Made by a program: the position numbers and the translations under genes
Virus record (IMG/VR): IMGVR_UViG_3300025015_000010
Span: 64,001 to 128,000 of that record
Direction: 5' to 3' (one strand)
DNA from: a virus
Length of the DNA stretch: 64,000 nucleotides
Notes under the pieces: generated by a model
What the model saw: only the letters and a program-made list of their open reading frames with translations
Told to the model about the DNA's origin: nothing
Databases searched by the model: none
Shown here: piece by piece, positions 6,562 to 53,930 of the stretch
Position numbering within the stretch: the first letter of the stretch is position 1
Layout of the letters: each line of letters starts with the position of its first letter

Positions 6562-6637
6562 GGGGGCGTGGCGCAGCGATTAACGCAGCGGACTTTTAAT
6601 CCGATGATCGCAGGTTTGAATCCTGCCGCCCCCACCA
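6562..6637 (+). tRNA. tRNA-Lys(UUU)
   Basis: Acceptor stem GGGGGCG/CGCCCCC, anticodon loop CTTTTAA, T arm GCAGG-TTTGAAT-CCTGC, encoded CCA. Confidence 0.92.
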
Positions 6638-34395: not shown

Positions 34396-36375
34396 TTACG
34401 CCCCAAATCCTCGTACTTCCGGCCCATCTTCCCAACGGTCCTTAAGAACCGACTGGACAGCCTCTAACAATACTTCCTGGCTCAGTACAGTCAACCCTCG
34501 ATGCTCAACCAGTCTCACGGCGTAAAGCAGAGATTTTTTGATTTCCCCGCCCGATAACTCAGCCTGGGCCAACTCTTCAAAATTCACGTTACCTAGCTTG
34601 GTACAGTCCGCCAGTAGCCCGCGCCAGATAGCTTCCCTGGCTTCTTCGTCTGGCAAGTCGAATTCCAGGACAGCCGCAACGCGCCGAATAAGTGCCTCGT
34701 CTAGGGCTTCCTTTCGGTTGGTCGCTAGAATTACGCAGCCGTTGAAGCGTTCGATTTCTTGGAGCAGCACGGCCACGTCTTGAGCTTCCCACGTGTGGCT
34801 AGTCCCGCTACGGGCGTAGAACAGACTATCGGCTTCGTCAAAGAACAGCACGGCCTTGCCTTCGTGGTCGTCTTTAGCCGTTTGGAACACTTTGGCGATG
34901 TGCTTCTGAGTCATGCCAACCCAATGGCTGATTAGCTGGCTGGAATCGACGGTCAGCAACGGCCAGCCGAGTTCACCGGCTACGGCTTGCGCGGCGAGTG
35001 TCTTGCCTGTTCCTGGTAGCCCCGAAAACAACAATCCAGGCCCGGTTCCGTAAGCTATCTTCTTGTCCAGCCCCCAATCGGCTAGGTAAGAACGGTCAGA
35101 CTTCAGGGCTGAAATCGTCATTTCGATGGTTTCGCGGTGAGCATCAGGCAAAACCACGTCGGCAAGTTTCACTATGGGTCGAATACACCGTAGCGAGCCG
35201 CCCGCCTCTATCGCTTCGGGCTCCGATTTCCCAGGCTTGGCTATAAAGTCAACGTCTCCATGCCCAAGGAGATAACGCGCCAAGTCTTCGTCTACGTAGA
35301 AATCTGTCGCTTCAACATGTCCTGCCTTGCCAGAAACTCGCACAAGGCCAGATGTGTGCAATCTGGCCTCAGGGTAAAGATAGCGGCGCAAGTCTAAGCG
35401 TACCGCTCTAGTTCCACCCATGACCTCAAGGAGTAGCCTTCCTGGCGTTTTGGGTCGTCCTGCTGGCTCGTCATTTCCACCGAACATAAAGAACGGCCTA
35501 TCATCGCTGGTATCCCGGCCATTCAGAGCAAGAAACACCAGTGCGTCAATTTCAGGACTGGCTAGATGTTCCTGCCTGGCCAGATGGTGTAACGGTGTAT
35601 CGTCCCAACGGGCAGATTCGCGTTCCACGATAAGCGCCCGCTCCAGTTTGCATAGCTTGTCTTGAGCCTCGGCATCTTCGTCGTCGTCATCGAGTGCCCA
35701 AGGTGGCCTACGTAGTCTCCTGGGTCGTTCTGTGCAGCGGCCCGCCCTGGCTTCACAGCATTTCAATATCAAGTCCAAATAATCGGTATAAGTAGCGCAT
35801 GGAGCCACACTCGAAGACGGTTCAGGCACGCCGTAGTCTTGCCCCGTGAGTCTGGTTAGCAGCACTTCACCGACTCGATAGCCTTTGAGTTCGTGCCAGC
35901 GACCGTTTTCAAGTTGTATAACCAACTTGGATTTAATGAGTGGTGCGTTTCTATGCAAGGCACGACTAGCTAGAATCCTGTCCATCGCCTGGGTACTCAA
36001 GGCAGGTAATATTGCTGTAATTTCTCGCTCAGGCCCGCCTTTGCTATCCGCCGCGAGCAACAGCCAAAGTATGCTTTCTTCGATGGCTGTCAGTGATAAC
36101 TCACCGATGATCTTATCCCAAAGCAACACACAGCCTTGTTCCTGGGCTGCACGGCGAAGTTCAGCCATGCTCGCCCGGATAGGTGTAGTCTCTAATAATA
36201 AATCTCTGGGTGGCGCTTCAGGTGGGATTTCTACAGGTGACATAGCCCGGCGTGCGTGTCGCAAGTACCTGGGCAGTTCTTCGGGCGGGGAACCAATGCT
36301 GTCTAGTACATTTCCGAGCCGAAACCCAAGCTCAAGGAAATTGCGGTCCAACTCGGTAAGCGGGTTATCCTGCAT
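34396..36375 (-). CDS. AAA+ ATPase (SpoVK/CDC48-like C-terminal domain), GC-rich cargo
   Basis: GLPGTGKT, LFFDEAD, ILATN, RR. TTGACA-17-TATAAT promoter at ~36473-36501. Confidence 0.9.
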   Translation of the reverse strand: MQDNPLTELDRNFLELGFRLGNVLDSIGSPPEELPRYLRHARRAMSPVEIPPEAPPRDLLLETTPIRASMAELRRAAQEQGCVLLWDKIIGELSLTAIEESILWLLLAADSKGGPEREITAILPALSTQAMDRILASRALHRNAPLIKSKLVIQLENGRWHELKGYRVGEVLLTRLTGQDYGVPEPSSSVAPCATYTDYLDLILKCCEARAGRCTERPRRLRRPPWALDDDDEDAEAQDKLCKLERALIVERESARWDDTPLHHLARQEHLASPEIDALVFLALNGRDTSDDRPFFMFGGNDEPAGRPKTPGRLLLEVMGGTRAVRLDLRRYLYPEARLHTSGLVRVSGKAGHVEATDFYVDEDLARYLLGHGDVDFIAKPGKSEPEAIEAGGSLRCIRPIVKLADVVLPDAHRETIEMTISALKSDRSYLADWGLDKKIAYGTGPGLLFSGLPGTGKTLAAQAVAGELGWPLLTVDSSQLISHWVGMTQKHIAKVFQTAKDDHEGKAVLFFDEADSLFYARSGTSHTWEAQDVAVLLQEIERFNGCVILATNRKEALDEALIRRVAAVLEFDLPDEEAREAIWRGLLADCTKLGNVNFEELAQAELSGGEIKKSLLYAVRLVEHRGLTVLSQEVLLEAVQSVLKDRWEDGPEVRGFGA

Positions 36376-38033: not shown

Positions 38034-38127
38034 CTCGGTCGCACGAGTATCAATAGGGAAGGAGCACGCTATGTCCCCGTCCTCTGGGCGGGTACGTGCT
38101 GGCGTGCTCCCTACTCGTGCGACCGAG
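38034..38127 (-). ncRNA. Candidate structured leader RNA
   Basis: 16-bp perfect outer stem and 9-bp inner stem, directly after TTGCCT-17-TATCCT. Confidence 0.5.
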
Positions 38128-39171: not shown

Positions 39172-39292
39172 AATTTTACTCCTAGATAATTTGAGCCGCG
39201 TTTCGTCCGGCCTGAGTCTATCGGTTGAACCTAGCACCGTCTAGGTTCCTATTGACAAGCTGCCATCCGGCTCTTTATCCTACTTCAAGTTA

Positions 39293-39441
39293 CGTCACCG
39301 GGCTGTAGTACATAGGGAGAAACTCTGTTTTCTCCTCGGGGAGCAAGCCCCGCCCTGTCCATTGGGGACAGGCGCGGCGGCTATGCTTGCTCCCCACCTT
39401 GCCCGGTGACGGACAGTACGCCGTTCGCGTCTGTCCTTTTT
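39293..39441 (+). ncRNA. Candidate structured RNA with intrinsic terminator
   Basis: Two nested 11-bp perfect stems after TTGACA-18-TATCCT, then a hairpin plus T-run. Confidence 0.5.
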
Positions 39442-39466
39442 ATTTGCCTTCGGGCAAGGAGGCGGT

Positions 39467-39851
39467 ATGGGCAAGGCAATGTTCTTGGCCATTGTTTTAA
39501 TTTCGTTTTTAGGTGGTTGCTCGTCCGTAGCAACTATGCGCGAGGCCGATCCCACCGAGGGCGCGTCGAAAACATATTCCGCTGATGTGCAACGGGTGGT
39601 AGACGCAGTCAGGCAAGCTATAACAGATGCAGGCTTCCCGTGTAGACGGCGGTGGCTGGTCAATCGTTGCAAGTAAGGGAATGTCAGCGTTTAGCTACGG
39701 CGAGTTTGTACGTGTCATGGTCGCTCCAGCATCGAACCCTAAGTCGTCTATTGTGCATGTTCTTACACGGCGGCGACTGGCCACAAATGTCACGGCCAAG
39801 GGTGATTACTCAGAAGCTATATTTGCTGGTATAGACCTTAGATTGCAATAA
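39467..39851 (+). pseudogene. Frameshifted lipoprotein (cargo)
   Basis: LGGC lipobox in 39467..39676. Plausible C-terminus in another frame from ~39638. Confidence 0.6.
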
Positions 39852-39896
39852 TTGTTTAGCTTCGCGGATTCATTGACTATTGCTGGAGAATTTTCG

Positions 39897-40874
39897 ATGC
39901 TTAGAAATGTGATATACGGGTTTTCGGTGGCCCTGTTGTTTAGTGCTTGTGGAGGTGGCGGCGGGTCGTCCAGTGCAGCACCAGTGCCAGGACTTCAAAC
40001 ACTAGTAGTTCCGTCTGTAAGTGATGTCAGGTTGGACGATGTAAATAGCCAGGGTATTATGCCGAAGAATTTACTTCTTGCTAGTGGAGTTTGGCTTACT
40101 GATCTAACAGGTGATGCCGTCGGAGGCAGTAGCGAGAGAGATATCAGTAGTATGGGCTTATTGCGAGACAAGAATAGCCTGTATGTGGCTTTAGTATTGA
40201 CCGCAGGAGGTGTTCCTGACGTGTCTGGCACCATACAGTATATTTTTAAGATTCAGGCCAGTGGAGCTACACAGAGGTTCGCGTTTAATGGGGATCTTAC
40301 TGGATATGAACCTCTTGTGAGCAAATTCACTGGGACTAATAACGTTACCACCACAGTAATTACTGATGGTCTTGGCGAGGTTTATGCTAATGCTATCATA
40401 TTTGAGATTCCCCTTGCTAACATTACAAACAGCGGCGGAGGGTTATCAGGAATAACAGCAACTGGTTATGTTCAGGCCGCCAATGTAGTAGCCGATAGCA
40501 CGCCGAGTGTATTGCTCGATTTTGGAGGTTACGTGCCCCTAGGTGACGCTAGTAATGATGGCACCTTTAGTAGCCTTCCCGTGTATGTTGCCCCACTGGT
40601 TACTGTTATTTCACTCAATCAGTCTGTGACAGTTGAGTGGTTTGTTGGAAATCCACCAGTAACTACAATTATTGAAACCGATATTCGGTGGCGTCCGAGT
40701 ACGATTGCTACGACCACTGTTGGAACTCAACATGCTATGTCAAATCCGGGGACGATTACTTCGTTTACCGATTCTTTTCTGCCGACAGCCCGAGGAACTT
40801 GGTTATTTTCTGTCTATGTAACCGACGGAGTGACAGAAGCAACTTCGACGGAGAAAGTTGTGATTGTTCAGTAA
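39897..40874 (+). CDS. Ser/Thr/Gly-rich beta-strand lipoprotein (cargo)
   Basis: FSACGGGGGSS lipobox. Confidence 0.75.
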   Translation: MLRNVIYGFSVALLFSACGGGGGSSSAAPVPGLQTLVVPSVSDVRLDDVNSQGIMPKNLLLASGVWLTDLTGDAVGGSSERDISSMGLLRDKNSLYVALVLTAGGVPDVSGTIQYIFKIQASGATQRFAFNGDLTGYEPLVSKFTGTNNVTTTVITDGLGEVYANAIIFEIPLANITNSGGGLSGITATGYVQAANVVADSTPSVLLDFGGYVPLGDASNDGTFSSLPVYVAPLVTVISLNQSVTVEWFVGNPPVTTIIETDIRWRPSTIATTTVGTQHAMSNPGTITSFTDSFLPTARGTWLFSVYVTDGVTEATSTEKVVIVQ

Positions 40875-40887
40875 GTCCGTAGTACCG

Positions 40888-40941
40888 CAAATAAACAGTC
40901 GTGTTTGCCTTTTCATTGAGACAAACACGACTGTTTTATTT
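40888..40941 (+). terminator. Intrinsic terminator
   Basis: AAACAGTCGTGTTTG...CAAACACGACTGTTT followed by a T-rich tail. Confidence 0.7.
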
Positions 40942-41072
40942 TCGCTCATAATTCAACCTGTATGAGCATATCAAAAGCAAGTTATATGTTTTGTCAAGGA
41001 CAGTATCTAGTAAATAGTGCTAGACTTACAATAGGCACGTTACTTGTAAATTTATAATTAGGAGAAAATGGC

Positions 41073-41459
41073 ATGTCAATCTACATACCCGAGAGCGCGG
41101 ATATATCAGGTTTGGACGCATCATTCTGGAAGAAGAAAAAGAAGCCTGCCCCCGCTGTTAAACTGTCAGATAAATTGATGAAAGTTAAGACTTCAGCAGA
41201 ACAGAGCATGTTTAGTACAAAAGCTATTAGGATGACGACTGAACAAAGGTGCATTGCAATTGGTGGACGCTGGGACTCATCTACCAATAAGTGCTTCAAA
41301 CGAGTATGTAACAGCGCTGATATAACTTTGCCACAGCCAGTAGACCCTTATGCTCAGGCAAAGGCTGATTGTGCTGCTAAGGGCGGGCAGTGGTATCCAT
41401 TTGCTAACCCACAGAAGTGCTTCAAACGAGTATGTAACGAGGCTGATGCTGGATTTTAG
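41073..41459 (+). CDS. Small protein with two Cys-rich repeats (cargo)
   Basis: C...GG.W...KCFKRVCN twice. Identical 24-bp DNA repeat at 41289 and 41415. Confidence 0.75.
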   Translation: MSIYIPESADISGLDASFWKKKKKPAPAVKLSDKLMKVKTSAEQSMFSTKAIRMTTEQRCIAIGGRWDSSTNKCFKRVCNSADITLPQPVDPYAQAKADCAAKGGQWYPFANPQKCFKRVCNEADAGF

Positions 41460-41488
41460 GCCAATTAACCTAGTTGATCGGATGAGTA

Positions 41489-42481
41489 ATGTCTAGTAAG
41501 TTACCATTTCCAAGGACAGACCGTGAATTCCTGTTGATGTTTCCAAACGAGGAAGCCTGTCTTGAGTATTTGATTGCGCTGCGTTGGCCCGATGGTTTTA
41601 CGTGCCCGCATGATGGATCACAAGAAGCCTATTGGCGACCAGGTAGAAAAGCGTTTGAATGCAAATACTGTAAGTATCAAGCCTATGCCACGGCCGGAAC
41701 GGTCATGCACAGTTCTAAGATACCTCTGACCGAATGGTTTTGGGCCGCTTGGCTTATGGCCACGCTCAAGCCAGGAATCAGTGCCTATCAGCTTTGGGAG
41801 CGGTCAATTATCAAGAAGTACGAAACAGTATTCAGCATGCTTCATAAACTACGCTTTGGTCTAGTAGATCCGAATCAACGGTTGTTCGATGGCATGGTCG
41901 AAGTCGATGAAACCTTCGTATGGGGCGAGAAACAGCCCAAAGGAACTAGAGGCCCCAAAGGTAAGATCATTATGGCTGGTGCTGTAGAACTCAGACACCG
42001 ATCAGAGAAAAAGAAGAATTTTCCAGATTACTATGCTACAGGCGTAAGGTTTCGAGTTGTACCCGATAGATCGGAAGAATCGTTAGCAGGCTTCGTCTAC
42101 GATTCTGTGGCAGAGGGAAGCATGGTCTACACGGATGCTCATGCGAGCTACCAACATTTAGACGTTCTATATGAACACTATATTGTTAGTGAATCCCGTG
42201 GGATGGACGCCGATAGCGTACTTCCGCACTTCCACCACATTGTTGGTAATTTCAAGGCGTGGATCATTGGTACGCATCACGGTGTCAGCCCGAAGCATCT
42301 TCAAACCTATGCCAATGAGTATGCATTTCGAGTTTCGCATACCTACGACCAGTTTCTAGCGTTTCAGCTAATGTTGGGCTTTTCGCTCGTTTCTCGCGGT
42401 CCAACTTACCCAGAGCTTTATAACGTGGGCCAACACGGCGGATATGCCCACCTCTCAGGCGTGGGTCTAGGCTACTTATAG
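41489..42481 (+). CDS. IS1595-family transposase (ISSod11-like), intact
   Basis: VEVDE, VYTD, FHHIVGNFK.W..GTHHGVS. Confidence 0.92.
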   Translation: MSSKLPFPRTDREFLLMFPNEEACLEYLIALRWPDGFTCPHDGSQEAYWRPGRKAFECKYCKYQAYATAGTVMHSSKIPLTEWFWAAWLMATLKPGISAYQLWERSIIKKYETVFSMLHKLRFGLVDPNQRLFDGMVEVDETFVWGEKQPKGTRGPKGKIIMAGAVELRHRSEKKKNFPDYYATGVRFRVVPDRSEESLAGFVYDSVAEGSMVYTDAHASYQHLDVLYEHYIVSESRGMDADSVLPHFHHIVGNFKAWIIGTHHGVSPKHLQTYANEYAFRVSHTYDQFLAFQLMLGFSLVSRGPTYPELYNVGQHGGYAHLSGVGLGYL

Positions 42482-42562
42482 CAGAATAGTTAGGGCTAGT
42501 TAAGTCTATGATAGGGCTAATGTTAAATTTACCGGCAAATAACGGATAAGCCTGATTGGAAT

Positions 42563-43423
42563 GACAAGCGCCTATATTTCGAGTGCAAATACTGTCACAA
42601 GCAGACTTACTTGACGGCTGGAACCGTGATGCACAGTTCCAAAATACCTTTAACGGAGTGGTTTTTGGCAGCATGGTTTATGGCTACGCTCAAGCCTGGA
42701 ATTAGCGCGTATCAGTATTGGGAGCGTTCGCGCATTGTAAGTTACAAAACCGTATTCAATATGTTGCACAAGTTGCGTTTCGGTCTTGTGGACCCAAATC
42801 CGTATACTCTGGAAGGTATGGTCGAAGTTGATGAAGCCCTTCTTTGGGGCGAGAAACAGCCCAAGGGCATCAATAAAGGTCCGAAAGGTAAAATTGTATT
42901 GGCCGGTGCTATCGAACTCAGAGAACGCAAGGAAAAGAAGAAGCACTTCCCGGATTATTATGTGACTCGGGTACGTCTACGAATCGTGCCTAATCGTTCG
43001 GAAGAGCACTTAGCTGGCTTCGTTTACGATACCGTAGCACCTGGGAGTATTGTTTACACAGATGCCCACGCGAGTTATCAAAACCTGGGTGGTTACTACG
43101 ATCACCACGTTATCAGTGAAGCTCACGGAATGGCCGCCGATAGTGTGCTTCCAGCATTTCACCAGGTCATTGGGAACTTTCGGGCGTGGATTATTGGCAC
43201 CCATCACGGTGTAAGCTCGAAGCACATGCAGACCTATGCCAATGAGTTTGCTTTTAGGGTGTCTACTACGTTCGATCCGTTCTTGGCATTCCAGCAAATG
43301 CTAGGTTATTCAGTCGTAGCGCGAGGCCCGACCTATCATGAACTCTATAACGTAGGCGAAAAGGGCGGTTATGCCCATCTTGGGGACTGTAACTTAGGTT
43401 CCTTACCGCTCGTGATGTTCTAA
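42563..43423 (+). pseudogene. Transposon B transposase, C-terminal part
   Basis: Highly similar to 2595..3605. Confidence 0.92.
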
Positions 43424-43500
43424 AAAGTTAGGATAGTTAAGTCTAAGTTCTAGTGATATTTATAATCACATGTAAATAAGGCATAAGCCTGTGAATGGGT

Positions 43501-43646
43501 ATCGTGATTTTGATCGTAAGCAAATTCACGAAGGCAAGGATAGTACAGGCTTAAAAGCTGCGGCCAAGGCTGGTAACGTTGGCAGCATATTGTGGGTGCC
43601 AGTTCCTAGGTCTAAGCATCGTGGTGTGGACACGGTGCCTAGGTAG
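43501..43646 (+). pseudogene. Displaced C-terminus of the GH73 gene
   Basis: In frame after the TSD: MNG|YRDFDRKQ...DTVPR*. Confidence 0.75.
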
Positions 43647-43874
43647 ATTTGATTTTCGCTATGGCACCGAGACCCTGGATTACAGCCCATGGCGCGAATC
43701 GTCGGAGTGTCGTGGTTTCAAATATAAGATCATAAGTTAATCCAGCCTGGCTAGTTTTATGATTATATAGTCCCACTCTTTCGCCATTGACATATACTTC
43801 AAGGCGAGTCGTTTTATTAGATTCAAAACTGTCAATTAGATTTTTGACTTGCTCATTAAATGTGGCTTCATCCA

Positions 43875-44452
43875 TCAAAATTTCTCCAGTATGGCACTAA
43901 TTCTGCTTTTGAACATTACAGTCGTAGACCGGGTAACAACCTTTTCAGCTTCGGCCGACCAAGCAATCTCACCCGTAGATTCTTTCTTTACGTCAGCCAA
44001 CACAGCTTTGATTACCAGCCCAGTGTCCTCTATTCTCATTTTTCGACTATGAGTTCCAGCCAAAGCATCTAGCACATGAGTCAGCCTCATGGGTGTTACC
44101 CACTCGGTAGCAATGGCGTTAGCTTCTTGGAGTACAGCCAGTGTCGCGCCTTCAACTACTTTGCGTGGCTTGGCCGTCTCTTCAAATTCAGTATTTTTGT
44201 ACTTCGCTACGATTCGCTCGCCATTATTTTTTCTGATTTCAATTGGCGGTCGGAGTACATCGCCTTCGCGTATTTTGTCTTCGATAATGCTACAAAGTTA
44301 GTGTGTTTTTCTCCGCCAGAAAAGAAAGTCAACTGGCCGTCTTTCCACAAAATGTGTGCCGAAGTCCCATGGAGTTTTTCTAGAGCGTATACCTCTTTGA
44401 ATAGCAATACATCCTGGTTTTTGTATAGGTTCTCGATATCAGCGTAGCCCAT
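43875..44452 (-). pseudogene. Rnl2-like RNA ligase with an internal deletion and frameshift
   Basis: EKLHGT (motif I) in one frame. EGDVLRP and AKYK (motifs IV and V) in another frame running into the 43875..44090 ORF. Confidence 0.75.
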
Positions 44453-44454
44453 TT

Positions 44455-46477
44455 TTAGTCCTTGGTCGGGTATATAATGCCAAGAAGTTTCTGGCCAAGT
44501 TCGTGACGTACCTGGTTCTTGACGATCACGTCGTCAAAATTTGTTCTAATAAGTTCGACAGCAACTACTCCTTGGAGCAGTTTAATCGCAGCCATGATGG
44601 CGTTAGAATGATCCTCATGTAAGTTATCTTCAAATGTTACCAGAATGCCTTTGTATCTATCAGACACTAGTTCACCTCATAGAGTAAGTTGTATACCTCA
44701 GCGTATTTCCCGCCCGTACCAACATGAATAGCATTTTCTGTCTGCATGCGTTCGGTCATGCACCAAGCCAAAGAATTAACTATAATGTCTGATTCGACAA
44801 TAGCCTTCCAGTTTTTACCATACCGTCTAGCCCAACGAGAATCAGCCTCGATGATTAATGCATTAGCCGACTTCCAGCGTGTAAATAGCCAGTAAGAGTC
44901 TAAAATACCGTCTGACTGCTCTTTAAGATCATCAAACATGTAGCATTTGTGCAGTAACCACAGCCTAGACCATGAGGTAAATTTATTCGTATATTTAGCA
45001 TATTGATATAGCATAAGTCCAGCTATGAGTAGTAAAGCCAGAGATGTATATATGCCTATAATCATGGCTCAATATCCCACAGTGGATTGTCAATATCCTG
45101 ATTGTGAAATACATCGGCGTAGTGGTCTACGGATGTTCCGATGAGTCTATACAGTTCCTGTAGCTCAGCCTTGGTCAGGGTGCCATTTTGCTGTTCTAAA
45201 CTTAATTGATTAATTCCAAAACCGTGTTGCGTGGCTAAATTCAATAGTTTTTCTACGGCCCTGTTCTTTCGAAACCGCTGTACGCCGATTCCATCGATTT
45301 CGGTAATATACACCCGCCCATTCATGTTGATCGGTATAGGCATATTTTCAGATTTACAAGCCACTGTCATCTAGCTTCTCCCTGATCTGTAGACTTGCTT
45401 CAAGGTCAACCCCGAAAGTAAACTTAGCTTCTTCTATGGCCGATTGAAGCAGTTGATCGATGCTGCTTTTGAGCATTTTGGCAATGCTTTCTTTGGGCAC
45501 AGTGAACATGCCTGCGGCTATGCCGGACGATGCCAATAATGATGTTGCAGCCATAAAAAGACTAGTCGCAGCTATATCTCCTAAGTTTCTCTTTTCACTT
45601 TCGGCAATGCATCTCTCCAACAGTTTATTCTGAATTATGTTACTTTCTTTTATCAAAATAGTTGCCGCTAGATTGTAGTCTTCTTTGCTTGTTTGGTTCA
45701 AAGTTTCTCTCCAGGATCAATTATTGCAAAAATACCAGTTAATGGGTTACCCACAGTAATGAGCAGGTCGTCTTCAGTTAGTTCCTCAAAATCCTGAATA
45801 AAAATGTGCCATGCTTGAATTTTAGTCGCGTCAGTTTCTTCTAGCACGTCGCCTAGGGTTCGTATAGTGATTGTTCCAGATCCAGATTCGATTGTGAAGC
45901 CTGGACGTCGGTTATCGATTACTGAGGCCAGGGCAAGCAGAGTATCCAGCTTAGTATAGGAGCTTTCAACCTGCTCATCGAGTATGCTGAGGGCAAATTC
46001 AGCTTCCGGCCGATCCTGTGTATCTAAGTCGCCTATGGTAAATGCGAGTGCATCTAGCCCTTCGGTATTACCTTCCGGGTTCAATGCTCCGAATTGGTCA
46101 ATGAGCGTTTCGATAAGCCATGGCATGTCCTGTGGGTAGGTGCCAGAGCCATAAAGCGGAGTTTTCCCATAGACCCCGAGATACAATGACTGTTCGGACT
46201 CCTTGTTAGATAAATCCAGTCTAGCGTTTAGGTCAGCGTCGGCCTTTTCCTTGTCAAATTTGTCTATAGGGACTTGGCAGGATACAAGTGCATACCTATA
46301 GACTGAGTTCTCGACAGTCACCTTGATAGCCAGGTCGCGGGTAGGGATGACAGTAGTTCTGTGATCAGTCGTAACCATGCTACCCAGCGCAGACGGATGC
46401 ACAAAGAAATCGGGCGAGGCATAGCGCTTCCAGCGTCGGCCGAATAGGTACCAAGTTTTAGAACTTTGTTCAGACAT
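44455..46477 (-). other. Run of hypothetical ORFs (44455-44667, 44667-45065, 45062-45370, 45354-45701, 45698-46477)
   Basis: Overlapping stop/start codons. Confidence 0.65.
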
Positions 46478-46758
46478 TGTTAGGCTCCTTGTTTGAGGGT
46501 TGTTCGATGTCGTTTCATAATTCAATAGCTTTTTGCAAAGTAGTTTTTACACCTCTGTGATTTCGTTCGTCGTTTTCCTTGAGCCAACCTACAATGCCAG
46601 CAGATACCTGGGCTAAATGCGATCCGGTTTCAGTCAGTCAGATGGTCTAAGCGATGTTCTAGCCAAGTGACATAAGACAAATTGTCGATGTCAGTCAAAC
46701 GAAAATCCTGGTATTGTGCATAGAGCACACTGTTTAGTGGATGAGCCACGCTATTCCT

Positions 46759-47241
46759 TTACAGGGTGTTTTCCTTAGGCTGGTTCTGCCAGTGATTATA
46801 CTCTGTGAGTATGTCTAAGTCAAGATAATCTTTGTACTTTTTTGGGTTCGATCTGATTTCTGTGCCGCTCACAGGTATTTCTGTGCGCGGTATGACAATC
46901 AAATCAGCCCCGAGAGACTTAGCTATGGCCTCGCGGTGATCAGTTTCGCCAGAGAATAGATGTGTGATATTGGCCTTTCCAAACACTTTTTCGATGTATT
47001 TCACATGCAGTTTGGAATGTTCAGGGCCGAACTGGTGAGGATTCTGGCAGATCACTATCTGTACATTTGGAAATTTGTGCTTGATCCAGTTTGCTCGTAC
47101 AAATGCCGGAATGTTGGTTACGTCAGGACGATTATAAATCGCTACGAATAGTAAGTCAACTTGGTTTATAGCCTCCTGTAGCAGGTGTTCGTGCCCTTTG
47201 TGCAGAGGCACGAACTTGCCTAGTATAAGTCCTGTGCTCAT
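46759..47241 (-). CDS. NadR-type NMN adenylyltransferase (cytidyltransferase-like)
   Basis: GKFVPLHKGH, RANWI, VSGTEIR. Confidence 0.82.
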   Translation of the reverse strand: MSTGLILGKFVPLHKGHEHLLQEAINQVDLLFVAIYNRPDVTNIPAFVRANWIKHKFPNVQIVICQNPHQFGPEHSKLHVKYIEKVFGKANITHLFSGETDHREAIAKSLGADLIVIPRTEIPVSGTEIRSNPKKYKDYLDLDILTEYNHWQNQPKENTL

Positions 47242-47507
47242 CCTGGTGCCTTCTTTTTGTAGTGCTGGTTCACGAATGGCAATACTGCCTTTAGGGCAGC
47301 AGTTATTTCGTAGCTACATCCAGTGCATCCACAGTTTGGCGCTTCTGGTCCTAGGTTGTCATAGACTTCTTGAAGCGCAGCACGCATAGCGTCGTACTGG
47401 TAGCCCAAGTAAATTATAGTAGGAATACTTGCAACGCACAGGCCACAGCCTAGGGATATAAGTATTAGCATTAATGCAGACATGTCTCACCAAAATCTAG
47501 AGATAAA

Positions 47508-47543
47508 GTAAACAGCCTCTGGCTTTAGCCAGGGGCTGTTTAC
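47508..47543. repeat. 36-bp palindrome made of the right end of the IS at 19413
   Basis: Its reverse complement is identical to 19413-19442 over 30 nt. It has TTTAC ends on both strands. Confidence 0.85.
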
Positions 47544-47793
47544 GCATGGATTGTTTGGCGAGATTAGGAAGGTTTGTCATAGCACATTCTCTTTCGCCCA
47601 CTGTTCAAAGGACTCCGTGCCCTGACTCAGTAGTCTCCTTGCTGCGTTGTAACCACCTAAAAAGGCAATCCGCCTGCGATCATCGCTTGGGACCACCTGG
47701 TTCATTTGACTCTCGGTCCAACTACACATGGCGGCTTCCCAGCCACGCTCATAATCACTGCGGAGTAACACCAGTGAGTCAAGCGCTTCAACT

Positions 47794-48306
47794 TCAGGCA
47801 TACTGTAGATCTCCTGGGTGGTCAGTTACTAAAACAAATTGCAAGGGAATTATAGAGGTTGTTTCAGCGTTTGTCAAGAAATTAATCAGCCACGGCAGTA
47901 CGATTTCTGATTTCAACTTACCGTTACGGCATCCAAAGGGTACAACAAGTACCTGGTCGGTAGCGAATCCAGCACAGAAATCTGGAAGTTGCTGGACAGA
48001 TTGCTTGACTAATTGGAGTGTCGAGTCCTGTTGCCATGATAGATGCGGCGCATTCGGATTTAGTGCCTTGGTGGGTACACAGACATACTGTCTGGTGCCT
48101 GTGTGTTTAAATAGTGGAAATGGCTGGATATTTCTATTTTCTTGACAAAAGTTACCGTAGATTTCAGGAAGTTTTGGGTCGCGTCGCGCAGCTTCCTTGG
48201 CTAACCCCGCGCCCATGATGTTATGCCCGTGTTTATTCCAGCCCAGGTTGGTAGTTACACAGATAATACCAGGAAAATTAAAAACATTCCCAAGGACTAT
48301 TCTCAT
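47794..48306 (-). CDS. Macrodomain protein (DarG/Poa1-like ADP-ribosyl hydrolase)
   Basis: GNVF, VTTN, MGAGLAK, PTK..W, PFGCRNG. Confidence 0.8.
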   Translation of the reverse strand: MRIVLGNVFNFPGIICVTTNLGWNKHGHNIMGAGLAKEAARRDPKLPEIYGNFCQENRNIQPFPLFKHTGTRQYVCVPTKALNPNAPHLSWQQDSTLQLVKQSVQQLPDFCAGFATDQVLVVPFGCRNGKLKSEIVLPWLINFLTNAETTSIIPLQFVLVTDHPGDLQYA

Positions 48307-48977
48307 CAATGTTTTCCAGCGTCAGGTCGATGTTTGTCTTGAGGTCATCCAGGTCATTGGCTGTAGTGGAGCCAAGCGTTTTGGATATTAACGTAAGGTT
48401 AGCCTGAATGTTAGCTATGAGGATTTGTAGCTGTAATGTTTTGTACATGTTGATTCTTTCTGGCCTAAAAGCACAGCGAAGGAATTCCAAGCATAAAAGG
48501 AGAACTGGCCATGCTTGTTCTAGATCAGAGTTGATCTTCGGGTAACCATCCCGTCCCTTCGCCGTGCAGACTAAAGATATGGCATTTACATCGACCTCGC
48601 GTGTGGCACTTTTGCACTCGTCTTTCGCGTGTCGATTTTAGACGACTAGATCAGAACTTAGTCTTGATCAGATCCACTTATTGACTGATGTTTCTGCCAT
48701 AGTTTATTTCCGGCGATATCTGTCGTGAGCTACAGAGGAGAAAATTCCCAGCAAGCTTAGCTTTAACTAGTGTATGGCTAGGCTTGTTTTCCCGTGTCAC
48801 AGATCTCGGCTTTGAGGCTTTTGTCGCATCGCCGTTTCTTGGAGCAGCCCGGTGGTCCATTTCTAGGTGGAGCGAACAATTTTGTGTTGCTTATCTCCGT
48901 TTTTGACACAGCACAAGAGTCTAGACTGTTGATCGCTCATGGATACGGCCAGTTGCCAGCCGCTGGACTGCACGATT

Positions 48978-49240
48978 TATTTGGTCAGTCAGCCTTCAAA
49001 TTGTTGATAAAAATAGCTGACTGACCAAATATTTTTAACTAACCAGATAGTCTGTTCTATTTATGAGATGTATTCGTAGCAGTACCTGGTTAGTTATATT
49101 TATAGGCCAGTAGTGGTATCGGTATGCACTCTACTTTGCGCTGGTGCTCGCCTTCAGCCTGTCTAACCGTTTTCGAGGAGAGCCGACTACTGGGATCACT
49201 ACTGGCCTAGTTTTTTATAGTTTTGACTCGTTTCCGAGTC
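48978..49240 (-). ncRNA. Candidate polycistronic ncRNA array (four stem-closed units)
   Basis: Perfect IRs of 6, 13, 11 and 16 bp in tandem, with A-rich linkers, downstream of a promoter. Confidence 0.6.
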
Positions 49241-49259
49241 GTTTGTCTCTTATGCTGAT

Positions 49260-49288
49260 ACTATACACGGTTGATGTTTGAATGTCAA
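49260..49288 (-). promoter_or_regulatory. Sigma70 promoter
   Basis: TTGACA-17 bp-TATAGT, with TG extension. Confidence 0.75.
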
Positions 49289-50009
49289 GAAGAAATTTTG
49301 TTTTGAGATGGTTCGCACGTCCCTTTATGGTGTTCGTCCGTATACTCTGGTTTGAATTCCGCTGGTCTTGCCGCTCAACTACGGCTATGAGGTTGTCCAG
49401 CGGCTGCACCCCTGCTTGACAATGGATGACACCAGAAAAACACCCTAGTCGCTCCCTTCAGTTTTTAATTTCTCTAAACACATGTAAAGATTTCTGTGCA
49501 TTTTATCTGTGCGAGGAAAAGATCCATGAAACGAGTTTTCACCAAGCAGCGCAGCCCATGAAATTAGGGTTGGCCCTATGCTCAGTGTTACGAGTTTACG
49601 GCTGTGGATACAGTATTCTACGAGGATTTCGCCGTCCGTTTCGTCTACTGTTATGTCAGGATCTGGAAGTCCTGTAGGTACTGCATCAAGGATTTGTTTT
49701 ATGTCTTCCATGTTATTTCCGTTTTTCAAGCTTTTAACCGTGCGTTCGCTATCTTAACGTATGTGATATCATTCTCCCTGGATTTAATCCCTAAACAGTT
49801 TACGCCATCTAAGTTTAAATGTCAACTACTTTCCTTGATTCCTTGGACTAGTCCAGAGGCGCCTTTGAGTTTGAACCAATCTGGTTCTGATTAATAGGAT
49901 GTCTTCACCAGATAGATTGCCGCGTTCACGGTCAACAATATCTAAAAGTCTTGAAATCTCAGGATAGATTGATTCTCGCAGTACAGTGTTCATGATTATC
50001 CTCTCATAA

Positions 50010-50242
50010 TTGGGTCGGCTGGTTGAGGTTATTTTCAACGGGCCTCCACCAAGTTTCCAGCCGACCCAAGTTAAAATATCTGTCCCTACACGCCAAATTC
50101 GGAGCCGGAAGATTAGATTTCCTAGCTCAGCCTCGGGGACATATCCCCTTACAGGTTGGCCCGCCCGCTGAAAGGCCCTGACGAGCCCAGCGTCTCCCTA
50201 GGTTTCGGTGTCCGGCAACCTAACCTCCCCTCGGGACAGATA
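50010..50242 (-). ncRNA. Two candidate structured RNAs (50077-50242 and 50010-50069)
   Basis: 10-bp and 13-bp perfect closing stems. An internal 13-bp helix needs G-U pairs that exist only on the minus strand. Confidence 0.6.
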
Positions 50243-50249
50243 ATTTGTT

Positions 50250-50507
50250 TTAACCCAGTTTCCTTTCTAATTCACGAATTTTGCACTCGAAGTCCATGCG
50301 AATTCTCTCGGATTCTACGTGTGTTAACCTAGTCCCAGCAATAATTAACAAAGTTTGAATTTGATGAATATCTAGCTTTGTCTCGTATGTACTTATGCTA
50401 AGCCGACCTAGGAGTAATACAGATTGTACAAAATTTTCATAGGAAATTTGGTTTGATAGCGTCTGTGCTTCGTGCAGCAAATCCTCATATGATGCTATTC
50501 GATTCAT
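50250..50507 (-). CDS. Hypothetical protein, leaderless
   Basis: TTGACT-17-TAGACT, with the ATG 6 nt downstream. Confidence 0.6.
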   Translation of the reverse strand: MNRIASYEDLLHEAQTLSNQISYENFVQSVLLLGRLSISTYETKLDIHQIQTLLIIAGTRLTHVESERIRMDFECKIRELERKLG

Positions 50508-50617
50508 GTGAGCAGTCTACCATGTCTCAAGACTGAAGTCAAGAGTTATTTACTAAAAATTTATGTTGACTGTAATCTATATTATGGTATAATCCTAGTA
50601 ACTCAAGGAGAAAAGTC

Positions 50618-51763
50618 ATGTCTAAAGAACTGATTACGCAGCTAGAAAGTCGGGTAGCTAGGGGGCTGATTAGTCGTAGAGATCGTGGACCGTTATCGAT
50701 CTACAATTACACAGACACTTGTACATTTGATCGCGCCTGGGACGAGTACACGATGGCTGCTCGTGGCCTGATTGTTAACCAGGTAACTAAAAAGGTAGTG
50801 GCCAGGGGATTTAGTAAGTTTTTCAATTATGGTGAGAATCCCGATATCGATTATACAAATTTTGGTCAATTTGAAGTCACTGAGAAGCTTGACGGCAGTC
50901 TTGGCATTATGTATTGGGACGAGTTAACCCAAATGTACCGGATTGCCACACGAGGCAGCTTCGAGAGTGATCAAGCCACCTGGGCAACGAATTGGTTGCA
51001 CAAGGAATTTTCTAACAGAGTAGGCATTATTAATGGCTTTGGTCAAGATCGAGGAATCACCCTAGTATTTGAGATCATTTATCCCGATAACCGTATTATC
51101 GTGGACTATCACGGTATTGAGGGGCTATTTTTGATCGGTGTGATTGAAAATTCGACGGGACATTCCTTTGGCTATAATCGAGTAGTCAATTGGGGCGAAG
51201 ATCACGGTTTTCAGGTAGTTAAATCGGTTCAAGTGACCAGTGTTCAAGAGCTTTTGGACTTAGCTTCTAAGCCTACAGGCAGGCCGACTGACGAGGAGGG
51301 TTGGGTGGTATTTTGGCCAAAAGCCCAATTGCGTGTTAAGATAAAGCGCGACGACTACATGCAACTGGCCAGGATTCTATCTAGGATGTCAGCCAGAGCA
51401 GTATTTGAGGCGGTTAGGGACGGTACTTTTGAGAATATGATCAAGGATCTGCCCCCAGAGTTGGCTAATGTACCGAGATTGTTAGAAGACGAAGTCAGCG
51501 CGGCATTTGCAACTGTGCATGACAACGCTGTAGACGCCCAGGATATTTTGTATGATCAGACAAAGAATAAACCTGAAATGTCCAGAAAGGACAAAGCACT
51601 GTTGATCCAAAGTGATTTACGGATTAAATGGTGCGCTTCGTACTTGTTTTCTATGCTGGATGGACAGGTTAATAATAAATGGCTGTGGAGTCAAGTTGAA
51701 GACAGGCTCAAAAAGATGGGCTATTTTATCCGCAGATTGCCTACCGAAGAGATTACGCCGTGA
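50618..51763 (+). CDS. T4 Rnl1-like RNA ligase
   Basis: ARGLI, KFFN, EKLDGSL, ATRGSF, FEII, EEGWV, VKIK. Sigma70 promoter at ~50566-50594. Confidence 0.92.
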   Translation: MSKELITQLESRVARGLISRRDRGPLSIYNYTDTCTFDRAWDEYTMAARGLIVNQVTKKVVARGFSKFFNYGENPDIDYTNFGQFEVTEKLDGSLGIMYWDELTQMYRIATRGSFESDQATWATNWLHKEFSNRVGIINGFGQDRGITLVFEIIYPDNRIIVDYHGIEGLFLIGVIENSTGHSFGYNRVVNWGEDHGFQVVKSVQVTSVQELLDLASKPTGRPTDEEGWVVFWPKAQLRVKIKRDDYMQLARILSRMSARAVFEAVRDGTFENMIKDLPPELANVPRLLEDEVSAAFATVHDNAVDAQDILYDQTKNKPEMSRKDKALLIQSDLRIKWCASYLFSMLDGQVNNKWLWSQVEDRLKKMGYFIRRLPTEEITP

Positions 51764-51921
51764 TTCGTCCAGGTAGCAAAGTAAAATACTTGCTAATTTC
51801 AGGTGAGCGCGGAGAAGGTACGGTTATCAAGCACCAATACGGTAGTACGTGGTTTGTCACTAAGGAAAATGGCCAGACTGTTAGTATGCCAACTACGGCT
51901 TTTGAGGAGATTACGCCGTGA
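51760..51921 (+). CDS. 53-aa ORF flanked by 15-bp direct repeats
   Basis: GTG start overlaps the ligase stop. Both proteins end in EEITP. Confidence 0.6.
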   Translation: MIRPGSKVKYLLISGERGEGTVIKHQYGSTWFVTKENGQTVSMPTTAFEEITP

Positions 51922-52252
51922 AATACCAGATATGGAAACGTTGGGAGTATGATCATGCAGATGATCCAACAGCTTGGAAGTTAGCTGATGACTATCAGTA
52001 TTATACTTTAGAGCAAGCCAATGCAGAGGCACGTAATCTTAGACGTAGGTTGACTGGTCGTATAGTTGAAGTCAAGGAGCAGACTATGTCTAACGACCGT
52101 TTCATCGAAGCCTATGCACAACTACGCAGAAATCTTCGAGATTTGATGTTTAAAAATGGAGTTCAATCTAATCCAGGATTCGGAGACGATGAGATTGTTG
52201 CCTGTATGGCCGAAATTATTCGAAAAGCGGGTAATCACAAGAAAGGAAAGTC

Positions 52253-52679: not shown

Positions 52680-53930
52680 ATGACGACTAAGCTATATAAA
52701 GTTGGTGGAGCCGTACGGGATACGCTTCTCGGTAGAACGCCCAAGGACATCGACTATGTTCTTGTGGGCGCTACCTATGAGCAAGCCCAAGCTATGTATG
52801 GTGATCCCGTAGGAGCCACTTTCCCGGTATTTTTCGATGCCAATGGCAATGAAGTCGCTCTTGCTCGCAAGGAAACTAAGACCGGTGCAGGCCATACAGG
52901 ATTTGTCTGCGACTTCGGGCCAGACGTAACGATTGAGCAAGATTTAGCTCGCCGTGACTTTACAATTAATGCTATTGCTATGGATTCGGACGGAAAGTAC
53001 ACCGACCCATTTGGCGGTATCAATGATCTGAAGGCTAAGGTGCTTCGTGCTGTGGGTCCAGCGTTCGCCGAAGATCCACTCCGTGTTTACAGGCTCGCTA
53101 GGTTTGCAGCTACGCTGGAATTTAGTATGGTTTACGAGACGGCAGAAATGGCTAAATCCCTGGTTCAAGAAATCAGTTCACTGTCTGGCGAACGAGTTGC
53201 AGCCGAGATGCTCAAGACGTTTTTCAAGTCTGGTATCAAGCCGTCCGTATTTTTCAGAACGCTGCTTGATCTTGGAGTTCTGCACGTGCATTTTCCCGAG
53301 GTTCAGGCCCTTGTAGATGTTCCGGCCGGGCCAAAGGTTCATCACCAAGAAGGTAGCGCGTTTGAGCACACAATGCTGGTTCTGGATGAGATTCAGTGCA
53401 GCGATCCAGTATCCAGGTTCGGCGCTTTGGTGCATGATCTGGGTAAGGGAGTGACACCTAAGAGCGAACTTCCTAAGCACTACGGCCATGATTCCAGGGT
53501 TGAACTGGTTGACGCCCTGTGTGACCGGCTGAAGCTGCCTGCTGAGTATCTGCACTTTGGTCGTTTGGCCATGAGTCAGCACATGCGGGCACATGAAGTC
53601 AAGAAAATGTCCACGAAGAAGCTTGTGCAGTTTGTTCATCAGGTTTCTAAGCCTACCACGGACATGTACAGGCTGATTGAAATCGTGGAAGCTGATGGCC
53701 GTGGACGTCGGCCTAGTAGTGAGGATAAGACAACTGGCGAGCATATCCTGAAGGTGTACGCAGCCATCAAGAGCGTGAAGCCAGTGGAAGTTATTCAGGC
53801 TGCTGAGAAGTCCAGAGCAGAACGCGCTGTCAGGACCGGAATCAAGCCTGAAAAGCTTCTTGGTAAGCATATTGGTGAACTTATTTACATAGCGGAAATT
53901 CAGGCTGTCAATAAAGTACTGGAGGTTTGA
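52680..53930 (+). CDS. cca: CCA-adding tRNA nucleotidyltransferase with HD domain
   Basis: VGGAVRD, DIDY, DLARRDFTINA, EDPLRV.R.ARF, HDLGKG. Leaderless sigma70 promoter. Confidence 0.93.
   Translation: MTTKLYKVGGAVRDTLLGRTPKDIDYVLVGATYEQAQAMYGDPVGATFPVFFDANGNEVALARKETKTGAGHTGFVCDFGPDVTIEQDLARRDFTINAIAMDSDGKYTDPFGGINDLKAKVLRAVGPAFAEDPLRVYRLARFAATLEFSMVYETAEMAKSLVQEISSLSGERVAAEMLKTFFKSGIKPSVFFRTLLDLGVLHVHFPEVQALVDVPAGPKVHHQEGSAFEHTMLVLDEIQCSDPVSRFGALVHDLGKGVTPKSELPKHYGHDSRVELVDALCDRLKLPAEYLHFGRLAMSQHMRAHEVKKMSTKKLVQFVHQVSKPTTDMYRLIEIVEADGRGRRPSSEDKTTGEHILKVYAAIKSVKPVEVIQAAEKSRAERAVRTGIKPEKLLGKHIGELIYIAEIQAVNKVLEV

Follow-up and report, generated by a model that had tools for sequence, protein, structure and literature searches.

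A tandem array of three perfect-stem hairpins behind a conserved promoter-leader cassette of a 169-kb phage: candidate variable RNA cargo

Introduction

RNase III hairpins are present in the leaders and between the genes of early transcripts of T7-type phages, where those between genes usually stand singly and contain internal loops. In the processing stalks of rRNA, closing stems bracket an RNA for excision or protection. Guide-RNA scaffolds sit at the 3′ end, that is, the right end, of TnpB elements.

Two published systems are of particular relevance to the locus analyzed here. The first consists of the PeSL mobile regulatory cassettes of T4-like phages (Arbiol et al., 2010, PMC2839356; Comeau et al., 2014, PMC4122927), in which a stem-loop that serves as a terminator precedes the promoter and which recur in many copies. 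The second comprises YrlA and YrlB, the Y RNAs of the Ro60/Rsr proteins (Chen et al., 2014, PMC4201824; Rfam families RF02553 and RF02565), whose 5′ and 3′ ends are paired in a long stem.

The window analyzed in this work is a stretch of 64,000 nucleotides that corresponds to bases 64001–128000 of a 168,734-base virus record, a 169-kb phage that is approximately 77% complete; the sample names of the matching contigs point to groundwater. Unless they are marked as genome positions or carry a contig label, coordinates are those of the window. On the minus strand of this window, a promoter and a leader are followed by three hairpins in series. The new element is the combination of promoter, leader and GAAA hairpin, which is a conserved cassette with interchangeable RNA cargo and is of greater interest than the array itself.

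Results

Three adjacent perfect stems in a non-coding gap

An earlier note made from the sequence of this region had described a tandem array of stem-closed units, and all of its features are present on the minus strand where it had placed them. Unit 2 (49103–49209, 107 nt) is closed by a perfect 13-bp stem (49103–49115/49197–49209) around a branched interior, unit 3 (49036–49096, 61 nt) by a perfect 11-bp stem (49036–49046/49086–49096), and unit 4 (48978–49031, 54 nt) by a perfect 16-bp stem (48978–48993/49016–49031) with a 22-nt loop. The stems enclose spacers of 22, 39 and 81 nt, the linkers between the units are short and AU-rich, and every one of the 40 stem pairs is Watson-Crick. The stem of unit 3 lengthens on the minus strand by one G.U pair and a further 2 bp, with a loop of approximately 25–39 nt; unit 2 lengthens better on the plus strand, via three G.U pairs.

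When compared with dinucleotide shuffles, the 341-nt stretch analyzed yields z-scores of -6.4 (minus strand) and -4.85 (plus strand). The single units give -2.9 (unit 2), -3.7 (unit 3) and -7.7 (unit 4) on the minus strand, the plus-strand value for unit 2 is -3.5, and both strands fold about equally well overall. Perfect stems of at least 11 bp with loops of at most 130 nt number 21 genome-wide versus 3–8 in shuffles, and the presence of three such stems inside 232 nt is unique to the array across the genome (Poisson P of approximately 4e-6 per scanned window and approximately 0.003 when corrected for all windows, at the genome's own rate). Three adjacent perfect stems are far beyond chance. 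A 12-nt perfect complement (48957–48968/49395–49406) brackets the promoter and the array, and such complements are equally frequent in shuffles.

The array sits in an ORF-free gap of approximately 950 nt between two small minus-strand ORFs, namely one of 88 amino acids (49448–49711), which forms the right border of the gap, and one of 56 amino acids (48281–48448), the next ORF downstream of the array. The initial impression that no credible ORF covers the units proved correct: stops occur in all six frames, a 276-nt minus-strand stretch is devoid of ATG, GGAG and AGGA, and the small ORFs overlapping the array had either no match in Pfam or matches far under the cut-off. The statement that this is not a CRISPR array also holds. 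The array has no direct-repeat family or iterons, its stems differ from each other, and it shows no similarity to the other loci of the genome; both a CRISPR array and a repeat mimic were rejected because the array contains no repeated near-identical units.

Stems of such perfection might function in DNA and not in RNA, either as palindromes that form single-stranded hairpins during replication, injection or packaging or create a recombination hot spot, or else they might be young, functionless inverted duplications that are kept perfect by template-switch repair. The exclusively Watson-Crick pairing and the comparable folding of the two strands are compatible with this possibility, as is the density of perfect stems in this and other phage DNA, approximately 12–14 per 100 kb, which is several times the shuffle rate; moreover, one neighboring hairpin (50010–50069, see below) is an indel between relatives. 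Nevertheless, we consider a DNA-level explanation improbable. With spacers of 22, 39 and 81 nt, cruciforms would not extrude readily; iterons, direct repeats and a GC-skew turning point are all absent from the locus, as are adjoining replication or packaging genes; the stems are unlike each other and hence do not provide a repeated site for a single protein; and the array occupies the exact cargo position of a conserved RNA cassette. A replication origin was rejected given that neither a GC-skew turning point nor iterons were found. A MITE was rejected as well: although the ends are inverted, no duplications flank them, and no further copies were found in the phage's own genome, IMG/VR or 185,579 species genomes. 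Outside the window, a 132-bp MITE-like element (G000:C1:155174–155305) has perfect 19-bp inverted ends and an 8-bp direct duplication, with two 29-nt partial matches (93% identical) in the relative L146.

A conserved promoter-leader cassette with a strand-specific hairpin

The sigma-70-type promoter upstream of the array (TTGACA-17-TATAGT, 49260–49288, minus strand) agrees with the consensus at 11 of the 12 positions. The predicted transcribed leader (49210–49259, minus strand) consists of a single-stranded start of approximately 13 nt, a 6-bp GAAA hairpin (49240–49225) and an A-rich linker (49224–49210). This region shows no enrichment of promoter-like sites (7 found versus 5.4 expected), and the promoter call therefore leans on the conservation of the cassette, not on the consensus match alone.

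This conservation became apparent from a genome-wide promoter scan, which found a paralogous cassette on the plus strand approximately 70 kb away (genome 40692–40770). The leader is 83% identical to genome 40714–40770 over 58 nt (E = 1e-7), with the similarity spanning the -10 element, the single-stranded start, the GAAA hairpin and the A-rich linker; the genome contains only these two copies of the cassette. Two relatives, L146 and L144, with Rsr 90% identical, keep the cassette upstream of rsr, in the same place as the paralogue. The -35 and -10 hexamers are common to the array cassette, the paralogue and both relatives (L144: TACAGT).

The GAAA loop and the pairing are kept in all four versions of the cassette; one pair of the leader hairpin reads U-A in the relatives but U.G in the paralogue, and one pair is missing from both arms in the array copy. 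The hairpin has a predicted stability of -6.8 to -8.4 kcal/mol on the promoter strand in four of four versions, whereas three of the four are weak on the opposite strand (-0.4 to -2.3). Among the sequence comparisons, this strand-specific conservation is the best evidence that the cassette may act as RNA on the minus strand. The earlier proposal of minus-strand transcription becomes credible in the light of the conserved cassette, its paralogue with the orthologues of the latter, and pairing that is kept only on the promoter strand.

The opposite polarity also has to be considered, namely that the units are plus-strand intrinsic terminators forming a wall that halts antisense transcription into the genes upstream of the array. 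Every unit has a U-rich tract behind it on the plus strand, the complement of the GAAA hairpin was flagged as terminator-like by the scan, and another stem-closed unit of this phage (genome 44834–44943) ends in a U run on the transcribed strand. However, there is no plus-strand promoter-like site from 39252 to 49004, and loops of 22–81 nt are atypical of such terminators. Furthermore, three of the four versions of the leader hairpin are unstable on the opposite strand, and what follows unit 2 on the plus strand is the A-rich linker conserved in the minus-strand cassette; because it belongs to the cassette, this A-rich tract, which precedes unit 2 on the minus strand, is no evidence for a plus-strand terminator. 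We regard this alternative as very improbable. Intrinsic terminators were accordingly rejected for both strands, as the minus-strand stems lack a following U run and the plus-strand structures have long loops and no promoter upstream.

Early promoters of this phage form families with common first transcribed bases after the -10 element (window 9724, 30969 and 61543; G000:C1:157139–160833). At the sequence level, this suggests repeated duplication of promoter cassettes.

Exchanged cargo behind the cassette at the rsr locus

The paralogous cassette and the rsr locus (L129:1193–3811, equivalent to G000:C1:40692–43310, plus strand) are located outside the window. There, the cassette heads an ORF-free stretch of approximately 900 nt, which also holds a YrlB-like unit and ends in two tandem Y-like RNAs directly before the TROVE (Ro60/Rsr) gene (113 bits). 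Behind rsr, there is a weak YrlA-like match (L131:340–451, 23 bits) with the order T-arm then D-arm, followed by a tRNA-Met(CAU) (L131:885–958); the same YrlA-like element is present in the relative L146 (27 bits). Matches to the YrlA and YrlB models in this genome are weak and confined to the rsr locus.

The four loci diverge directly past the A-rich linker. In this phage, the cargo of the rsr locus is a 293-nt segment (L129:1271–1563) that is 88.7% identical to the 3′ end, or right end, of a TnpB-like element at genome 47.5–49.0 kb; the genome has five TnpB-type matches. In the relatives, the cargo is an ORF-free segment of approximately 790 nt (L146:300–1090 and L144:2320–3118, 97–98% identical to each other) that has many GNRA-type loops, matches no Rfam family and is absent from this genome. 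At the array locus, the cargo is the three-hairpin array. The Y-like RNAs and rsr located behind the cargo are conserved in the relatives. The divergence of the cargo, together with this conservation, indicates that the cassette launches non-coding RNAs at the border of exchanged segments.

Comparison with known RNA families and partner machineries

The nature of the cargo at the rsr locus raises the question of whether the array itself provides partner RNAs for machines of the phage, that is, additional Y-like RNAs for Ro60 (Rsr) or a guide-RNA scaffold for a TnpB/Cas12-like nuclease. The phage encodes both an Rsr with Y-like RNAs and TnpB-type proteins, the paralogous cassette drives exactly these kinds of RNA, and unit 2, at 107 nt, has the size (80–130 nt) and the closed-end design of Y RNAs (PMC4201824), whereas units 3 and 4 are shorter (61 and 54 nt). 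Still, this possibility is remote enough to be judged highly improbable. A Y RNA was rejected because RF02553 and RF02565 remain unmatched in 48200–49800 even at E 10. The motif pair of the phage's own Y RNAs is confined to the rsr locus (genome 41452 and 41566) and is absent from the array; no GNCGAA-type Rsr-binding motif is visible in the 5′ arms of the units. Furthermore, the array (genome 113.0–113.2 kb) is separated by approximately 70 kb from the TROVE gene (genome 41.6–43.3 kb), as against the criterion for Y RNAs of a position within approximately 4 kb on the same strand. Likewise, the array shows no similarity to the CRISPR locus and matches no resident TnpB right end, and on the latter ground a stand-alone omega-RNA was rejected.

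The Infernal/Rfam check that the earlier note had called for identified no family at gathering thresholds and only noise-level matches at E up to 10. The preQ1-I riboswitch (RF00522) was rejected at 17.8 bits against a cut-off of 39 (E 1.3), with a loop of just four bases. ARAGORN and Rfam detected no tRNA-like features in the units, and a tRNA or tRNA-like RNA was rejected given that there is no cloverleaf and no T-arm/D-arm signature. The sole tRNA in the window is a tRNA-Lys(UUU) at 6562–6637, in a genome that also encodes an Rnl1-type RNA ligase (50618–51763) and a CCA-adding enzyme (52680–53930). Both of these enzymes are encoded near the array on the plus strand, opposite to it, and it had been suggested that they ligate or CCA-tag the ends of the units. 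This suggestion found no support beyond proximity, the units having neither tRNA-like nor minihelix-plus-CCA features; the hairpin clusters that other phages (L057, L068) have near Rnl1 are of a different, unrelated kind. Nor was any evidence found for the units as decoys, antitoxins or anti-CRISPR mimics; comparison with the CRISPR and TnpB loci of the phage revealed no repeat-like similarity. In an antisense scan of the phage's own genome, the sole complement of at least 12 nt was a 14-mer between 49046–49059 (unit 3) and approximately 34817–34830, on the coding strand of a minus-strand ORF (approximately genome 98.8 kb); with flanks, 22 of 26 positions are complementary, which is at chance level.

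Hairpin units confined to one phage population

No homologues of the array were found in the phage collection, and IMG/VR scans with a stem, the conserved neighboring RNA and the leader as queries returned chance matches only. In the 185,579 species genomes, unit 4 had no match and unit 2 had three, all at chance level and with unrelated interiors; the phage's own genome contains nothing similar to the array except the cassette paralogue. Thirteen other contigs from several samples represent the same phage population, with 99.5–100% identity over the shared stretch. In these contigs, the array is identical apart from one SNP, at 49028 in L117, which breaks one pair of unit 4 and is uncompensated. 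Because the array copies are essentially identical, no covariation signal is readable from the stems. By these sequence comparisons, the hairpin units are orphans confined to one phage population.

In an Rnl1-anchored search, the best relative in IMG/VR was just 38% identical. The nearest different relative, L036, has an Rnl1 that is 80% identical, and it is collinear with the window only over 49773–51923. The L036 contigs stop at the start of an IS607-type gene, which probably explains the assembly breaks there. In a relative, the cluster of small genes next to Rnl1 gives way at the contig end to the beginning of an IS607-type recombinase-like gene (L136:6237–6312). The relatives' homologues of the macrodomain and NMNAT genes, which are encoded downstream of the array on the same strand, are all on contigs shorter than 1 kb.

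Other stem-closed units were detected in this genome. The 110-nt unit at genome 44834–44943 (L131:1835–1944), which is followed by a U run on the transcribed strand, is kept in the relative L146, where 10 of the 31 pairs differ on both sides, and these two-sided changes indicate that stem-closed RNAs are a real class in this lineage. The invariant pyrimidine-rich loop of this unit resembles an anti-Shine-Dalgarno sequence. A 170-nt unit (50073–50246) with a closing stem of 10–14 bp and no Rfam match is approximately 97% identical in L036, versus approximately 75% for its flanks. A 60-nt hairpin with a perfect 13-bp stem (50010–50069) ends a few bases before a ribosome-binding site and is missing from L036, which keeps the sequences on both sides; given this absence, such hairpins may be young, short-lived and dispensable.

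The downstream region and a possible role in cis

Behind the array, an untranslated remainder (48449–48977, minus strand) with stops in all frames extends up to the 56-amino-acid ORF. The 470 nt behind the array fold no better than shuffles (z -0.72), and the tidy domains of approximately 124 nt that appear there in one fold prediction are not significant. The scan found no minus-strand terminator-like site between the array and 47675, so transcription through the array probably continues into the genes downstream.

This arrangement brings up the main rival explanation, under which the hairpins are purely cis-acting parts of a long 5′ untranslated leader that stabilize or insulate the downstream early mRNA (56-amino-acid ORF, macrodomain, NMNAT) or set its processing, with no separate small RNAs. 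Apart from the uninterrupted path into these genes, such a role would be in keeping with the leader hairpins of T7-type early transcripts, with the position of the 50010–50069 hairpin just ahead of a ribosome-binding site, and with further perfect stems at 38034–38127 and 39293–39411. However, three distinct long hairpins in series with no ORF between them exceed the need of any known leader, approximately 530 nt more of untranslated RNA precede the next start codon, and the paralogous cassette launches trans-acting RNAs (a guide-RNA scaffold and Y-like RNAs). On balance, an exclusively cis-acting leader is fairly unlikely by itself but ranks close behind the explanation favored below.

Discussion

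We tentatively favor, with slightly less than even confidence, the explanation that the array is a variable RNA cargo of the conserved early promoter-leader cassette, transcribed from the minus strand and probably processed into stable hairpin RNAs. Under this proposal, host-type RNA polymerase would start near 49253 on the minus strand and would first transcribe the conserved leader of approximately 45 nt, with its single-stranded start, GAAA hairpin and A-rich linker. The three very stable hairpin units, separated by short AU-rich linkers, would come next, and the transcript would then continue through approximately 530 nt of untranslated sequence into the operon of the small ORF, macrodomain and NMNAT genes. 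The units would fold during synthesis, and cuts would probably be made in the AU-rich linkers, as RNase E-type sites, and/or in the long stems, as RNase III-type substrates; stem lengths of 11–16 bp are compatible with a predicted RNase III site. The products would be hairpin RNAs resistant to nucleases, and the downstream message would be left with a trimmed 5′ end.

We infer the transcription of the array, its processing and any function in trans from the non-random structures, from the ORF-free stretch with no ATG or Shine-Dalgarno-like motif, and from the paralogue with its orthologues; the G.U pair gained by unit 3 on the minus strand favors a minus-strand RNA. Several observations weigh against the cargo explanation. 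The one variant in the population breaks a pair of unit 4 with no compensation, uniformly Watson-Crick pairing fits DNA palindromes or a recent origin equally well, the two strands fold about equally with unit 2 extending better on the plus strand, a relative lacks the 50010–50069 hairpin, and local promoter-like sites are not enriched.

It is also conceivable, although unlikely, that the cassette serves specifically to launch phage RNAs that act in trans and that the three orphan hairpins are a new kind of cargo, possibly decoys or partners of RNA-binding machinery. In that case, the partner could be a defense sensor, RNase III, Rsr or an RNA-guided nuclease, of either the host or the phage. 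Judging by their gene families, the macrodomain and NMNAT genes of the operon suggest a counter-defense role.

If the cargo explanation is correct, a single conserved promoter-leader module expresses interchangeable non-coding RNAs in this phage lineage: a transposon guide-RNA scaffold, Y RNAs, the large RNA of the relatives and the hairpin array. The idea of mobile regulatory cassettes would thereby widen from the swapping of genes to the swapping of RNAs, and the cassette would provide a handle for finding more phage RNA genes.

Comparison with known systems

With respect to stand-alone TnpB omega-RNAs, the array is similar in being a promoter-driven, multi-hairpin non-coding RNA candidate with no adjacent nuclease gene, and the paralogous cassette carries such a copy; in contrast, the array beyond the cassette shares no sequence with the TnpB-like elements of the genome. 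The processing hairpins of T7-type transcripts and of rRNA are likewise long hairpins in untranslated parts of polycistronic RNA, as would be those of the array in an early transcript. Unlike the T7-type hairpins, the array stacks three perfect stems with no gene between them, and its cleavage is a prediction. The similarity to Y RNAs lies in end-paired small RNAs that are sometimes tandem and co-transcribed with other genes, and, moreover, this phage has Rsr and Y-like RNAs that are launched from the paralogous cassette. The array units differ in that they have no Rsr-binding motif, tRNA-like domain or model match and are far from rsr.

The closest published concept to the cassette, by our comparison, appears to be PeSL, although the layout differs. 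Both combine a near-consensus sigma-70 early promoter with a stem-loop, are repeated in one genome, and are found in variable small-gene regions at the borders of segments that differ between relatives. In PeSL, however, the stem-loop is the terminator ahead of the promoter, whereas the hairpin of the cassette described here would be transcribed, lying after the start site in a conserved leader that is present in two copies, and the swapped segments are non-coding RNAs.
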